DNA from: Escherichia phage vB_EfeM_pEP20
Sequence record: OQ743992
Length of the DNA stretch: 64,000 nt
Direction: 5' to 3' (one strand)
The position numbers were made by a program, and so were the translations under genes. The notes beneath the pieces were generated by a model. That model was not told where the DNA came from. It did not search any database and saw nothing but the letters and a program-made list of their open reading frames with translations. Below are positions 40,833 through 58,645 of this stretch, piece by piece (the stretch's first letter is position 1; each line of letters begins with the position of its first letter).

Positions 40833-41939
40833 TTAGTCTGGTTTAGCGTCAGAACGAACGTCTACCAGCAACTGAGGACGTGTGCAGTATGGTAGCATGT
40901 AAGAGTGAGCTTCAAAGTCAATACCTTCGTCACGGTCTTTTTCGTATTCGAATACGTACAGTTCCTGACCAAGTGTATTTGCATAACCCATCTTAGGACA
41001 TGGACCATATGCCACTTCGAAGATGTTGTTTGCTTCACCCAACATAGAGACGTTAGGGAAAGCATGACCTACACCAACAGTTGCTGCTACGCTGTCAATG
41101 CTCACCAGAGTGTGAACCTTACCACGCTTGTCTTTGAACTTACCGTTGTACTGGACAAACTTAACACCACCGTAGTAGAAAGTGTTCATGTGAGCCTGAA
41201 CGCCGTCAGTACCACCAGTTCTCAGAGAACCAGTAATCTGTTGCCAAGCCAGCGGAGTCTGCTGTGCAAGATAAGCGTCACGAATCTTAGGATGCTTAAC
41301 CAGTTTGCTGAAGAATAAACGGTCAACAACTACGTGAATTTCTTCACCGTTGATTACAGTGCCAGTCTTAGCTTCGTCTTCCATGTGCATACGCAGTTCT
41401 TCAATAGAAGCGTCGATGTCAGCATTAGGGTTGTCAAGGTCGAAGTAAACAGTCTTCTTCTCAACGTCGAACTGCTTGTACAGGTCAGCATACAGAGTAC
41501 CACGAGCATCAACAACTTTACCCTTCAGAGCTTGCATAAACAGGAACTCACGAGTAATATCGAACTTGGTACGAATCTTCATCAGCTTCTTAGCACGTAC
41601 TACAGCTTCAGTAGTCAGTTCGTTTGCAGTGCCTGGCTGACGTACACCCTGAATTTCATCAGGAGTAATGCTTTCAACTTCTTTGAAGTACATCATTGGG
41701 AAGCTGATTTGACGAACACGCTCAGGTGCGCTAGTCTCTGCTTTACGGCTATCACGGTCTACCGCATCAAGCAAGCTAACATCCCAATCAGTCAAATCCA
41801 TAAGGAAAGTAGTTTGGGTGATTGGTGCTGAACGGAACAGACCTAAGTTGGAAATATACCCATAAGTATTTGGGATAGACTGGACTTCACCAGTCAGGTC
41901 AGCAAGGAAAAATCTGCTTTTTTCAGAATTAGTCAACAT
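40833..41939 (-). CDS. major capsid protein (lambda gpE-like)
   Basis: 368 aa following protease and decoration genes; C-terminal ...MLPYCTRPQLLVDV recalls the lambda E C-terminus. Confidence 0.7.
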   Translation of the reverse strand: MLTNSEKSRFFLADLTGEVQSIPNTYGYISNLGLFRSAPITQTTFLMDLTDWDVSLLDAVDRDSRKAETSAPERVRQISFPMMYFKEVESITPDEIQGVRQPGTANELTTEAVVRAKKLMKIRTKFDITREFLFMQALKGKVVDARGTLYADLYKQFDVEKKTVYFDLDNPNADIDASIEELRMHMEDEAKTGTVINGEEIHVVVDRLFFSKLVKHPKIRDAYLAQQTPLAWQQITGSLRTGGTDGVQAHMNTFYYGGVKFVQYNGKFKDKRGKVHTLVSIDSVAATVGVGHAFPNVSMLGEANNIFEVAYGPCPKMGYANTLGQELYVFEYEKDRDEGIDFEAHSYMLPYCTRPQLLVDVRSDAKPD

Positions 41940-53511: not shown

Positions 53512-54927
53512 TTACCAGATGTAACGGTCAATCATTACTGCTTTGAGCATTACGCTGATTGGGTCAAACTTCTCACCACCGAGCAGAGCTTTTAAAGTGG
53601 CTGGAGAGAACCCTGATACCATTGCTACACCGTTATCCTTAACAGACACTTCGCAAGTACCATTACGGTTTGCTAAGTACCAGAATACCAGTTGTGGCAT
53701 TTCGTATCCAGCTTTTTTGTACTTACTACGAATTGCTTCAAAGTTTGTACGACCATTTGCACCATCAACCTGATTGAACTCCATATCAGAGAAGATGATA
53801 AGCTTACTTGGCATATCTTTCTGAGTCAAGTTGTTTCTCTTACCTGTCTCAAGAATACGGTCAAAAGCTGCTTGTAAGTTAGTTGAGCCATATTCAACAT
53901 GACGCATCACCTGACGATGACGGTTTTTCAAATCACCACTCAGTTCGATGAAATGAGGGTTTGTTGAATAAACCATTAACTCATTCTTAAAGCAACCCGT
54001 ATTGCGTTCTGCTACATACAAGGCAAGGGATACACCAATATCAAGGGCAGTGATTGAACCAAGATTCACCCAAGACATTGAGCTTGAAACATCAGTCATA
54101 CACAGGATGTTCTCACCTTCTGCCATCCAGTTTGGTAGTGCTTTCCACTGCTCATTAGCCACATCTGCATTACCATACTTAATAGATTTAATCACATCGT
54201 ATGGGTAAACAGCACCAGCGTTAATCTTAACCTCACCCTTTGAGAGTGACTCGATGTAAGCTTTGTAACGTTCCCCATCTTTACGGTTAAAGAGTTTTTG
54301 GTAACGTGCAGTAGCGAGTGAAGGAATCTTGCTGTAGTCAATCTTACCAAACTCATTAGCAGAGATTTTTTGCTCAACCGTATCAGACAGTGCAGATAAC
54401 AGTGTGCGATACTCCTTCTCACTTAAGTTTGCAAACTTACAGAAACGTTTTACAAACTGTTTGTGGCGTGGTTTTACTCGTGGTAACCACTTAGCCGCTA
54501 AACCTGCTGTTGCAGGGTCTAGTAATGCTGCTTCTAAATGTTTGAAGGCATCTGTCTCAAAACGAGTGCCTACGAAGATTTTGAAGTCATCAAAACGACC
54601 AAGTTCTGCAATCTTATCCATAATGCGAAGAACCTGTGTAGGTTCTAAAACTTTATCTTCAATCGCTTGAAGTAAAACAGTTCGGAAAGCTTTACGCTCA
54701 CCCATACCTTCTCGTACATCTCGCATATGCAGTAAAATACGAACTGCAACATCAACATCCTCACGCAAAGCTTTGTAGAACAGGTCTGGTAAGATTTCTA
54801 CATTGCTACGGCTTGAGCCAGCGGCTTTGTAAAAGTCTACCAGAGCAGACATTGATGAAGTATGGTTTACAGCACCATTTTCAGTTCGACCTGCATGAAG
54901 GTGCGCATGTTTAAATAACTCGCTCAT
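53512..54927 (-). CDS. Ro60-like protein (TROVE-like helical N-terminal region + von Willebrand A domain with MIDAS motif)
   Basis: 471 aa; helical N-terminal 260 aa, then DVSSSM MIDAS motif and a C-terminal region that aligns from memory with the Ro60 vWA domain (DVSASM...LGSI, GSTN vs GGTD, IFSDME vs VFTDNE). Confidence 0.5.
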   Translation of the reverse strand: MSELFKHAHLHAGRTENGAVNHTSSMSALVDFYKAAGSSRSNVEILPDLFYKALREDVDVAVRILLHMRDVREGMGERKAFRTVLLQAIEDKVLEPTQVLRIMDKIAELGRFDDFKIFVGTRFETDAFKHLEAALLDPATAGLAAKWLPRVKPRHKQFVKRFCKFANLSEKEYRTLLSALSDTVEQKISANEFGKIDYSKIPSLATARYQKLFNRKDGERYKAYIESLSKGEVKINAGAVYPYDVIKSIKYGNADVANEQWKALPNWMAEGENILCMTDVSSSMSWVNLGSITALDIGVSLALYVAERNTGCFKNELMVYSTNPHFIELSGDLKNRHRQVMRHVEYGSTNLQAAFDRILETGKRNNLTQKDMPSKLIIFSDMEFNQVDGANGRTNFEAIRSKYKKAGYEMPQLVFWYLANRNGTCEVSVKDNGVAMVSGFSPATLKALLGGEKFDPISVMLKAVMIDRYIW

Positions 54928-55007: not shown

Positions 55008-55379
55008 TTATTTTTTAAGAGTCGCTACAGCAGAGAACGTTGGTTTGTTATCTGTCTGAGGCTGACCACCATTATCAGGGGTCTTCTTAGTGTCTGCTGC
55101 AATTGCTTTCATCTCACCTGCTGAGTGTGTCATGATAGTTTTACCAGCTTCCATCATCGACTTTAGGTTTACATCGTCAGTCGTCAAACCAAACTCTGCA
55201 AGCTTAGCAGCATCCCTTGTAACAATCGCCTCAAACAACTTTGCAGCAAACTCAGCAGAATTATCAATGGTCAGTTGAGCTTTTACGAGAGAGCTTTTGT
55301 TACGTGAGCCTTTCGGTCTTCCAGATGGGTTTCCGGACTGGCCTTTTTTAAACTGGCCTTTGTTTGTTCTGTTTTTCAT
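55008..55379 (-). CDS. hypothetical basic protein (123 aa)
   Basis: Track ORF with Gly/Lys-rich N-terminus (GNPSGRPKGSRNK). Confidence 0.45.
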   Translation of the reverse strand: MKNRTNKGQFKKGQSGNPSGRPKGSRNKSSLVKAQLTIDNSAEFAAKLFEAIVTRDAAKLAEFGLTTDDVNLKSMMEAGKTIMTHSAGEMKAIAADTKKTPDNGGQPQTDNKPTFSAVATLKK

Positions 55380-56597: not shown

Positions 56598-56620
56598 AGG
56601 GGCTGATGCCCCTTTAACTA
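56598..56620 (+). terminator. rho-independent terminator candidate
   Basis: Hairpin AGGGGC-TGAT-GCCCCT followed by TTAACTATTT. Confidence 0.45.
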
Positions 56621-56636
56621 TTTATAAGGATATTTA

Positions 56637-57008
56637 ATGAAAGCTAAGAGTGCAAAAGACTTTTATTGCTTCCTACAATCCTATATCAATTCCGTGCAAA
56701 ATGGTGAAAGGTACAACCTTAATGATGTTATCCCAACACCTTTGACATGGAGACTCAGTAAATGGCCTGAAGAAGATATTACACCAACAAGCGAACAACG
56801 TACCTACAAACCTGAAATCAATATTCCAGATTCTGAGAATCTATTATATCCAATGTTCCATATTGTTGGTCTTGGAAGATTCCTTATGGATATCCAGTAT
56901 GTAATTGGTAAAGGTTATAAGGTTAAAGGCGTTGTTGTTGGTGATGTATCTCCGCATCACAAAGGTTATTTTAGACTAAACGCACATTTAGAGGCTAAAA
57001 AGAAATGA
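56637..57008 (+). CDS. hypothetical protein (123 aa), paralog of the N-terminal domain of the next gene
   Basis: Shares layout and motifs with residues 1-120 of the 57005-58138 product. Confidence 0.5.
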   Translation: MKAKSAKDFYCFLQSYINSVQNGERYNLNDVIPTPLTWRLSKWPEEDITPTSEQRTYKPEINIPDSENLLYPMFHIVGLGRFLMDIQYVIGKGYKVKGVVVGDVSPHHKGYFRLNAHLEAKKK

Positions 57009-58138
57009 TTAAAGCAAAGACTTACCCAGACTTCAAAGAGTTTGTGAAGGGCTTCATTGCAAATGTAAAGGCTGGTAAGAGATATGATTTTAGAACATAT
57101 CAAGAGGCTATTTTACCACTCACCTATAGTTCGTATTGGCCTGAAGCTGATATTGCAGAAGTTAAGAAGTTTGACTACAACCCAGACTATAAAGTCCCAT
57201 TTAGTGATGAGTTGCTTTACAGTGTTGGTGCTCAAATGAGAACTTCTGACTTCTTCATGGACTTACAATATGCAATTATCAATGGTAAAGACGTTGATAC
57301 AGTTTATTGTGAATGGCTGGCAAGAGTTAAACCATTCTCAATGTTGAATGCTAAGTTGAAGGATGCTATCAAGCCACCAGCAATTACTCAGCAACCAACA
57401 GGTCAAACAGTCAATGAGGGTGGCACACTTACTCTAAGCATTCTAGCAACTAACGCCACTGGATATCAGTGGAAAAAGGATGGTGAGGACATCCCTAGTG
57501 CCAATTCTGCAACTTATACAAAACAGTCAGTAGCACCTTCTGACGCTGGTGCATACACTTGTGTTGTATCTGGAGAGGGTGGAACAAGTGTTACCTCAGA
57601 TGCAGCAACAGTGACTGTGAACGCACTACCTGTGATTACCAAGCAACCTTCTAACCAGACTATTAATGAAGGTGGAAACATCAACTTAGCAGTTACTGCA
57701 ACTGGTGCAACTGGCTACCAATGGAAGAAAGATGGTTCTGACATTCCTTCAGCTACAAATGCTACCTATAGCAAGTCTGGTGCTCTGCCAGTAGATGCAG
57801 GTTCATACACTTGCGTTGTAACAGGTGCAGGTGGCTCTGTAACGTCTAACGCTGCAACAGTTACTGTGAATGCACTTCCAGTAATCACTCAACAGCCAAC
57901 CAATCAAGAAATCAATGAAGGTGAGACCTTAACACTGAATGTTGTGGCAACAGGTGCAACGGGTTACCAGTGGAAGAAAGGTGAGGAAGATATCCTCGAT
58001 GCAACCGCTGCAACTTACACTAAAGAAGGTGCAACCGCTGCTGATTCGGGAAGCTACACCTGTGTAGTTACTGGTGCAGGTGGCTCTGTCACATCTAACG
58101 CAGCAACAGTTACAGTTAGTCCAGTAGGAGGGGCATAA
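57005..58138 (+). CDS. protein with three tandem immunoglobulin-like (I-set-like) repeats
   Basis: Three copies of about 85 aa each containing ATGYQWKKDG ... D(A/S)G(A/S)YTCVV(T/S)GAGG ... ATVTV. Confidence 0.6.
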   Translation: MIKAKTYPDFKEFVKGFIANVKAGKRYDFRTYQEAILPLTYSSYWPEADIAEVKKFDYNPDYKVPFSDELLYSVGAQMRTSDFFMDLQYAIINGKDVDTVYCEWLARVKPFSMLNAKLKDAIKPPAITQQPTGQTVNEGGTLTLSILATNATGYQWKKDGEDIPSANSATYTKQSVAPSDAGAYTCVVSGEGGTSVTSDAATVTVNALPVITKQPSNQTINEGGNINLAVTATGATGYQWKKDGSDIPSATNATYSKSGALPVDAGSYTCVVTGAGGSVTSNAATVTVNALPVITQQPTNQEINEGETLTLNVVATGATGYQWKKGEEDILDATAATYTKEGATAADSGSYTCVVTGAGGSVTSNAATVTVSPVGGA

Positions 58139-58602
58139 TGCAACTCTCAAGAAAAGGTTTAGATGCTATTAAGTTCTTCGAGGGTCTGGAGTTAGAGGCT
58201 TACGAAGATTCTGCCGGAATCCCAACAATCGGGTATGGGACAATCCGTATTGACGGAAAACCTGTTAAGATGGGTATGAAGATTACCGCTGAACAAGCTG
58301 AACAGTATCTTCTCGCAGATGTTGAAAAGTTCGTTGCAGCAGTGAACAAAGCCATCAAGGTTCCAACTTCTCAGAACGAGTTTGATGCACTTGTAAGTGA
58401 AACATACAACATTGGCATTACAGCTATGCAGGACTCTACATTTATCAAGCGCCACAATGATGGTAATAAGGTAGGTTGTGCAGAAGCTATGCAATGGTGG
58501 AACAAGGTTACAGTCAAAGGTAAGAAGGTCACTTCAAACGGCCTGAAAAACAGACGTAGAATGGAAGCTGACATTTATCTTGACAGCGTATATCCAAAGT
58601 AA
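58138..58602 (+). CDS. endolysin (GH24 lysozyme family)
   Basis: 154 aa; FEGLELEAYEDSAGIPTIGYGT matches the T4/lambda-type lysozyme catalytic E-D-T region; RBS GGAGGGG. Confidence 0.8.
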   Translation: MQLSRKGLDAIKFFEGLELEAYEDSAGIPTIGYGTIRIDGKPVKMGMKITAEQAEQYLLADVEKFVAAVNKAIKVPTSQNEFDALVSETYNIGITAMQDSTFIKRHNDGNKVGCAEAMQWWNKVTVKGKKVTSNGLKNRRRMEADIYLDSVYPK

Positions 58603-58612
58603 TATCTTCATA

Positions 58613-58645
58613 GGCTCCTTCTGGAGCCTTTTTTTTTTTTTTTTT
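58613..58645 (+). terminator. strong rho-independent terminator
   Basis: Hairpin GGCTCC-TTCT-GGAGCC followed by a long uninterrupted T run. Confidence 0.8.

Follow-up and report, generated by a model that had tools for sequence, protein, structure and literature searches.

Three plus-strand genes lie end to end at the locus, within the 64,000-nucleotide stretch of DNA that was analysed (hereafter the window): one encodes a short stand-alone protein, one a protein with three immunoglobulin-like (Ig) repeats, and one an endolysin. The genes adjoin by overlapping codons, the paralog stop and the start of the Ig gene sharing ATGA and the stop of the Ig gene and the endolysin start sharing TAATG, and all three are bracketed by a hairpin at 56599–56615 on one side and a strong terminator behind the lysin gene on the other. 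The features, together with a candidate partner gene elsewhere in the window, are:

56599–56615, plus strand: GC hairpin GGGGCTGATGCCCC followed by TTT, 5′ of the paralog gene (read from the sequence)
56637–57008, plus strand: 123-aa protein without Ig domains, paralogous to the capsid-binding domain, phrog_4463 (ORF, PHROG, alignment and AF2)
57005–58138, plus strand: capsid hexamer decoration protein, very probably of the Hex-Dec/gp20 type (ORF; PDB sequence matches)
57005–57370, plus strand: N-terminal domain of this protein (residue-for-residue alignment with the portions of 9ncf_S and 9c2d_S that were modelled)
57374–57625, plus strand: Ig repeat 1, aa 124–207 (Pfam Ig_3, best stretch aa 124–189)
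57626–57874, plus strand: Ig repeat 2, aa 208–290, the variable middle repeat (Pfam Ig_2, aa 209–288)
57875–58123, plus strand: Ig repeat 3, aa 291–373, the conserved terminal repeat (Pfam I-set, aa 292–366)
58138–58602, plus strand: endolysin, a GH24 phage lysozyme (Pfam PF00959 Phage_lysozyme, E 2e-40)
58612–58639, plus strand: intrinsic terminator after the endolysin gene, a 7-bp stem with 5 GC pairs, then T10 (terminator scan)
40833–41939, minus strand: major capsid protein (MCP), 368 aa, putative binding partner with Asp at 221 (translation and position check)

Identity and genomic setting of the Ig gene

The Ig gene was confirmed as an open reading frame with an ATG start (57005–58138, plus strand), and its 377-aa product consists of an N-terminal domain of ~120 aa followed by three repeats of 83–84 aa. 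The product is identical to the NCBI protein P0101 of Escherichia phage vB_EfeM_pEP20, which carries the label ‘tail protein’. When searched against the PDB with phmmer, it returned near-full-length matches from residue 1 onwards to 9ncf_S (“Immunoglobulin-like domain protein”, E 5e-278) and to chain S of 9c2d/9c3a (“Tail protein”, E 1.6e-169). A search with the 4-kb stretch around the gene found 252 matching phage records, with identities of up to 95–96%; nearly all of them belong to Felixounavirus or Mooglevirus, their hosts are Escherichia, Salmonella, Shigella and Citrobacter, and the gene order is kept. The window comes from a myophage of the Felix O1 type, genus Felixounavirus. Together, the PDB matches and the shared gene order in these Felixounavirus and Mooglevirus genomes point to Hex-Dec/gp20 as the identity of the protein. 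Taken as a whole, the evidence is best explained if 57005–58138 encodes a decoration protein of capsid hexamer centres, orthologous to Bas63 Hex-Dec and Sf14 gp20, and we put the probability of this reading at roughly 93%. The decoration protein itself is already known: it has been solved and named, and both its odd gene position and its variable number of Ig domains have been published.

A first-pass annotation made from the sequence alone had placed the gene beside the endolysin gene and outside the structural block, and this placement holds. The endolysin gene follows at 58138–58602, and the structural module closes with the terminase and portal genes, which run to about 47650, some 9–10 kb from Hex-Dec. 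The position directly upstream of the endolysin gene and outside the structural module is conserved in relatives. For Felix O1, the 2010 genome paper already described a “tail protein” gene lying well apart from the morphogenesis genes (PMC3185647), and the Bas63 paper, which counts one to four Ig domains in relatives, puts the Hex-Dec gene >10 kb away from the structural module (PMC12609058).

Published expression data suggest when the gene is active. By RT-PCR in Felix O1, ORF36 and ORF37, the counterparts of the Ig gene and of the paralog, peak at 60 min, whereas the lysin peaks at 25 min; the 60-min peak of ORF37 coincides with those of ORF36, a candidate portal gene and the tail-fibre genes (PMC3185647). 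Such timing does not fit a simple single-transcript picture well. The Hex-Dec gene would be expressed late, in a short unit with the upstream paralog and the endolysin gene. The upstream hairpin is listed as a rho-independent terminator for Felix O1 (table in PMC3185647); our terminator scan did not call it at 56599–56615, where the T-run is short. A sigma-70 promoter scan gave 7 hits versus 11.3 in shuffled sequence, and we therefore claim no promoter. A T4-type late promoter at TATTTATA in front of the paralog gene was rejected as well, given that its consensus TATAAATA would lie on the opposite strand.

Ig repeats and capsid anchor

The repeats had been read at first pass as three tandem Ig domains of eukaryote type, and both domain searches and structure prediction bear this out. 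All three fall within the Pfam Ig clan: Ig_3 (PF13927), Ig_2 and I-set (PF07679) each matched the protein in three stretches, at 110.7, 93.8 and 86.7 bits against curated gathering thresholds of 30, 27 and 23.7, respectively. AF2 modelled aa 123–372 as three beta-sandwiches with a pLDDT of about 95, and the top Foldseek matches of this model are animal strings of I-set type (LRIG1, Robo1/2, titin I67–I69, PTPdelta, Sidekick and contactins; E 1e-15 to 3e-21). In the sequence, GYQWKK recurs at aa 153, 237 and 320 and YTCVV at aa 184, 268 and 351, spaced by 84 and then 83 aa, and each repeat retains the C-strand Trp (YQW) and a D-x-G-x-Y-x-C motif. “Eukaryote-type I-set” is a fair description of these repeats. 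The Cys of that motif is the only one in each repeat (the whole protein has four), so that a classical B–F disulfide is impossible; the missing disulfide is compatible with folding in the bacterial cytoplasm. The fibre formed by the repeats is predicted to be acidic, with a pI of about 4.4.

An artefact of low-complexity sequence or DNA repeats, which would have undercut the Ig assignment, was rejected. Tandem Repeats Finder reported no DNA tandem repeat in the Ig gene, and the repeats are 65–74% identical to one another as protein and about 55–65% identical as DNA, which argues for old, diverged domains rather than low-complexity sequence. The repeats score as genuine Ig domains.

Comparison with positional orthologs shows that the repeats differ in how well they are conserved. 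Repeat 1 is 98% identical to its counterpart in ASO1A, 90% in Felix O1 and 89% in AN17P8. Repeat 3 is 96% identical to repeat 2 of ASO1A and 94% identical to repeat 4 of AN17P8, and repeat 2 is 89% identical to repeat 2 of AN17P8 and has no counterpart in the two-Ig form of ASO1A. Across phages, the first and last repeats are conserved and the middle ones are gained or lost. Repeat 2 of Felix O1 is a chimera of window repeats 2 and 3 with its junction near the GYQWKK core, and the single repeat of a 210-aa, one-Ig protein (P0052) is also chimeric and joined near this core. These junctions indicate that Ig copy number changes by in-register recombination; the number of Ig domains, one to four in relatives, would shift through such exchange between repeats. 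The cargo of the N-terminal anchor domain varies in kind too. It consists of one to four I-set domains in Felixounavirus and Mooglevirus, of one Big_2 domain in the Erwinia Kolesnikvirus group and, in one metagenomic protein, of a Lys-rich tail; the stand-alone paralog has none at all. The anchor domain is a module whose cargo can be exchanged, and with this range of natural cargoes (I-set ×1–4, Big_2, a Lys-rich tail or nothing) it could serve phage-display engineering on T=9 heads.

How the anchor is seated is known from orthologs. Bas63 Hex-Dec and Sf14 gp20 are monomeric, Hoc-like decoration proteins, and in cryo-EM maps of both phages the ~120-aa N-terminal domain sits at the centre of those hexamers of the T=9 capsid that adjoin pentamers; the true-threefold hexamers are empty, and the Ig domains are disordered in both maps (PMC12609058, PMC11821841). 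Sf14 gp20 is anchored through Arg79 and Arg107, which form a pair of salt bridges with Asp221 in three capsid subunits (MCP gp34), and it was detected in virions by mass spectrometry (MS; PMC11821841). Shotgun MS of Felix O1 virions likewise recovered gp36 (31.6 kDa, 44% coverage), labelled “tail protein” at the time (PMC3185647, 2010). Particle association has thus been shown for orthologs, by MS in Felix O1 (PMC3185647) and by cryo-EM in Sf14 and Bas63 (PMC11821841, PMC12609058), and the ortholog data place the protein on the head, not on the tail.

Both sides of this contact recur in the window. R79 and R107 are present in the window protein and invariant in the alignments of its relatives, and the protein encoded at 40833–41939, the putative partner, has Asp at position 221; its assignment as MCP rests on its size, its position in the module and the 41.6-kDa gp58 of Felix O1. 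From the ~95% identity to orthologs and the conservation of both contact sides, we infer the same location and binding mode for the protein studied here. In the full-length AF2 model, the capsid-binding domain is poorly modelled (pLDDT below 50), and its fold here is therefore taken from the homologous solved chains; the Sf14 authors also state that their own AlphaFold model of the capsid-binding domain does not reflect the density (PMC11821841). One copy of the N-terminal domain would plug the centre of each of the 60 hexamers next to pentamers in the T=9 head, Arg79 and Arg107 would anchor it to Asp221 of the MCP, and the three I-set-type Ig domains would extend away from the capsid as a fibre that is flexible and acidic. 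If T4 Hoc is a guide, this fibre may adhere weakly and multivalently to glycans or surfaces, or it may control aggregation, and either activity might keep virions near their hosts.

Two other identities for the product of 57005–58138 have to be weighed against a decoration protein. The ‘tail protein’ label appears on P0101, on phrog_3995 and on most GenBank records, and the sequence does match major-tail-protein PHROGs (phrog_158 at 9e-38, phrog_853 and phrog_3575). However, these matches are confined to the Ig region (aa 96–207 or 119–207), and Ig domains are promiscuous among phage proteins. Outside the Ig domains we found no tail homology, the N-terminal domain matching only phrog_3995, phrog_4463 and capsid-bound PDB chains. 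The orthologs sit on the capsid by cryo-EM, and the Bas63 paper calls the tail annotation inaccurate (PMC12609058). Ortholog cryo-EM and MS rule out a tail protein, to which we assign next to no probability, and the label on most records and on PHROG 3995 should read “capsid decoration protein”. The same data dispose of a non-structural, lysis-associated function, such as that of a cell-wall-binding partner of the endolysin, which the TAATG translational coupling to the endolysin gene and the distance of about 10 kb from the structural module might suggest. The ortholog is present in purified Felix O1 and Sf14 virions by MS and on capsids by cryo-EM, which rules out a lysis accessory; moreover, no signal peptide or membrane segment was seen by eye in the sequence, and the Erwinia relatives keep the adjacency to the lysin gene with a Big_2 domain instead. 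We regard this function, too, as extremely improbable.

The stand-alone paralog

The relationship between the N-terminal domain and the neighbouring gene at 56637–57008, also proposed at first pass, stands. The two align with 41 identities in 116 positions (35%, against Hex-Dec residues 1–119), and the alignment score of 135 compares with 27 ± 5 for 500 shuffles, about 22 SD above. The PHROG families of the paralog and of the N-terminal domain cross-match (E 3e-16 and 7e-15), and 25 core positions are invariant among 30 members of the paralog and Hex-Dec lineages. AF2 modelled the paralog with moderate confidence (pLDDT 72, pTM 0.72). Searched with Foldseek against the whole PDB, this model retrieved only 9c2d_S and 9ncf_S (TM 0.65, probability 1.00), the next match having an E above 1.

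The paralog is present in about 232 of the 252 related genomes, and in both Sf14 (FDI99_gp021) and Bas63 (bas63_0125) it immediately precedes the decoration gene. It is missing in Kolesnikvirus, which dates the duplication to the ancestor that Felixounavirus and Mooglevirus share. Its dN/dS is 0.09–0.20 in well-diverged pairs, versus 0.02–0.09 for the Hex-Dec anchor domain, and the paralog is under purifying selection. In REP10, SP116 and Z31, which form one sublineage, the paralog has become a pseudogene that has lost its ATG and about 225 bp; Hex-Dec is intact in REP10 and SP116 despite this loss. The paralogs of Felixounavirus and Mooglevirus lack the Arg anchors, with Gly in place of R79 and His or Gln in place of R107; the divergent P0217 has, in a by-eye alignment, Gly at the R79 position and Arg at the R107 position. 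The gene at 56637–57008 is a copy of the capsid-binding domain without Ig domains, dates from the Felixounavirus/Mooglevirus common ancestor and would be a functional late gene.

Our literature search found no discussion of the paralog, including in the two cryo-EM papers (PMC11821841, PMC12609058), both of which overlooked this stand-alone copy of the capsid-binding domain next to the gene that they describe. The terms “paralog”, “gp21” and “gp19” do not occur in the main text of the Sf14 paper (PMC11821841). The paralog is not reported from the virion in the Sf14 or the Bas63 study (PMC11821841, PMC12609058), and ORF37 does not figure among the 17 virion proteins listed for Felix O1 (PMC3185647). 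In VpaE1, ORF40 carries the label “hypothetical protein”, and the MS of the wV8 paper covers the tail fibre only. Family searches are similarly sparse. The paralog has no Pfam match, and PHROG 4463 is a family without known function. The anchor-domain family as a whole is tiny: a profile search of 1.84 billion proteins returned 13 cluster representatives, with almost no relatives outside Ounavirinae-like phages. With the search for distant relatives nearly empty, no function can be transferred to the paralog.

We lean towards the paralog being a late, non-virion protein that retains the fold and has taken on another role. It could act as a transient assembly factor or as a placeholder in procapsid hexamers, or it could be the partner of a non-capsid target. 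A non-virion protein fits four observations together: the Arg anchors are lost, virion data do not include the paralog, selection on it is purifying, and it is dispensable in the laboratory. The empty Pfam search, the functionless label of PHROG 4463 and a family of only 13 representatives point to none of the roles just named in particular. We are doubtful that the paralog has instead remained an Ig-less capsid binder, whether seated on the 20 true-threefold hexamers or competing with Hex-Dec in a way that tunes fibre density. Its predicted fold does match the capsid-binding domain only (TM 0.65, probability 1.00), the 25 core positions are invariant in both lineages, and late co-transcription with Hex-Dec, the ATGA overlap and purifying selection would all agree with such a function. 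Yet the paralogs of Felixounavirus and Mooglevirus carry Gly and His/Gln where Hex-Dec has its Arg anchors, whereas even the distant Erwinia homolog of Hex-Dec retains Arg and Lys. The 17 virion proteins of Felix O1 do not include the paralog, Sf14 and Bas63 encode it but no density is reported on their other hexamers, and REP10, SP116 and Z31 carry it as a pseudogene. Less probable again is that the paralog is an unrecognised player in head decoration, either a blank plug or transient placeholder that competes with Hex-Dec for hexamer centres or a marker of the 20 threefold hexamers. If this were true, the competing paralog would set the number of Ig fibres per capsid.

Comparison with known systems

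The closest known counterpart is the Hex-Dec of Bas63 (Escherichia phage JohannRWettstein; 9NCF chain S), which is the same gene in a phage of the same genus. Its capsid-binding domain is near-identical, it has the same type of Ig domain, R79 and R107 are present, and the order of paralog, Hex-Dec and endolysin genes is shared. The Bas63 protein differs in having four Ig domains (460 aa) rather than three, the extra repeat lying between window repeats 2 and 3. Shigella phage Sf14 gp20 (9C2D and 9C3A, chain S) is an ortholog with three Ig domains (372 aa) that has been detected by MS; its capsid-binding domain lies in the N-terminal 118 aa, and the paralog FDI99_gp021 adjoins. Sf14 belongs to a different genus, Mooglevirus, and its Ig repeats are more diverged, while its capsid-binding domain is about 88% identical, as measured on the near-identical Sf13 and Sf17. 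Felix O1 gp36 (ORF36) is the ortholog in the type phage, a late gene that adjoins both the lysin gene gp35 and the paralog ORF37; the synteny with gp35 confirms the correspondence. It differs in having two Ig domains and a length of 294 aa.

At a greater distance, gp37 of the Erwinia Kolesnikvirus (phiEa21-4 group, for example SunLIRen) has a homologous capsid-binding domain that keeps R79 and K107, and its gene also lies directly upstream of the endolysin gene. In contrast to the window protein, it carries a single Big_2 domain rather than I-set domains, and the stand-alone paralog is missing from these phages.

T4 Hoc, which is non-essential, resembles Hex-Dec in design: it too binds as a monomer in the middle of hexamers through a small capsid-binding domain, and its Ig-like domains line up into an acidic fibre. 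The capsid-binding domain of Hoc is C-terminal and topologically distinct, however, whereas that of Hex-Dec is N-terminal (PMC12609058), and Hoc occupies every hexamer on the T4 head while the Hex-Dec family binds only edge hexamers. The ‘Hoc-like’ PHROG matches of the window protein (phrog_2973, 4069 and 3945) cover only aa 120–370, that is, the Ig region. Hex-Dec is an analogue of Hoc rather than a member of the Hoc family, and the two proteins hold the capsid by non-homologous anchors.

Annotation of the capsid decoration gene

Misannotation of the Hex-Dec capsid decoration gene (window 57005-58138; P0101 among the compared proteins; phrog_3995) is systematic. UniRef, PHROG 3995 and most of the listed GenBank records label its product a 'tail protein', and in UniRef even the Ig-less paralog of its capsid-binding domain is called 'Tail protein'; only a few records carry the minority labels 'capsid decoration protein' or 'immunoglobulin I-set domain protein'. 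In the virion of Escherichia phage Bas63, 22 of 23 gene products have been modelled, and one unidentified C3 density is left in the baseplate at the tip of the hub PA domain (PMC12609058). At least one small virion protein in the genus is therefore still without an assignment.

The decoration-lysis unit and decay of the paralog

The genes for the paralog, Hex-Dec and the endolysin are packed into one compact unit: their stop and start codons overlap (ATGA, TAATG), and the unit is bordered by a hairpin on one side and a terminator on the other. Despite this compactness, RT-PCR in Felix O1 placed the lysin peak at 25 min, before the ORF36/37 (Hex-Dec and paralog) peak at 60 min. Nearby, a tRNA cluster adjoins two divergently transcribed genes.

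Window 53512-54927 (-): DUF2828 and DUF7788 protein of 471 aa, to which the RefSeq record of Felix O1 gives the label 'RNA-binding protein'
Window 55008-55379 (-): 123-aa DUF5681 protein
Window 56599-56615: GC hairpin, one border of the unit
Window 58612-58639: strong terminator, other border of the unit

In three related phages the paralog persists as a 192-bp pseudogene remnant that lacks a start codon and carries an internal deletion of about 225 bp. Hex-Dec is intact in REP10 and SP116 despite this decay; in Z31 it is truncated too, to 134 aa.

L010:1309-1500: paralog remnant, REP10
L009:1309-1500: paralog remnant, SP116
L003:2309-2500: paralog remnant, Z31

Variation in Ig repeats and displayed domains

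We compared the repeats of the window (57374-58123; r1 to r3) with those of three related loci (L002, L001, L005) and of P0052, a one-Ig form. Across phages, the repeats at the first and last position are positional orthologs. Repeat 2 of Felix O1 is an r2/r3 chimera and the single repeat of P0052 an r1/r2 chimera, each with its junction near the conserved GYQWKK core. The repeat count (1-4) shifts through in-register recombination.

The comparison of cargo other than I-set domains took in SunLIRen gp37, P0223, P0221 and P0222. In Erwinia Kolesnikvirus the capsid-binding domain is joined to one Big_2 domain (PF02368, 76 bits), as in the following gene.

L004:2941-3555: Erwinia phage SunLIRen gp37, capsid-binding domain plus Big_2

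P0223 instead carries a disordered Lys-rich tail, and further metagenomic members of the family bear other Ig-like domains. Since the displayed domains differ between lineages, the anchor is modular and its cargo swappable.

Within the PDB, the top non-phage sequence match to the Ig repeats (window 57500-58100) is 9flp_A (E 1.3e-79, 16 matched stretches), which is GhpA, the grappling-hook protein of the predatory bacterium Aureispira; this I-set-like repeat type thus also serves in long bacterial surface fibres.
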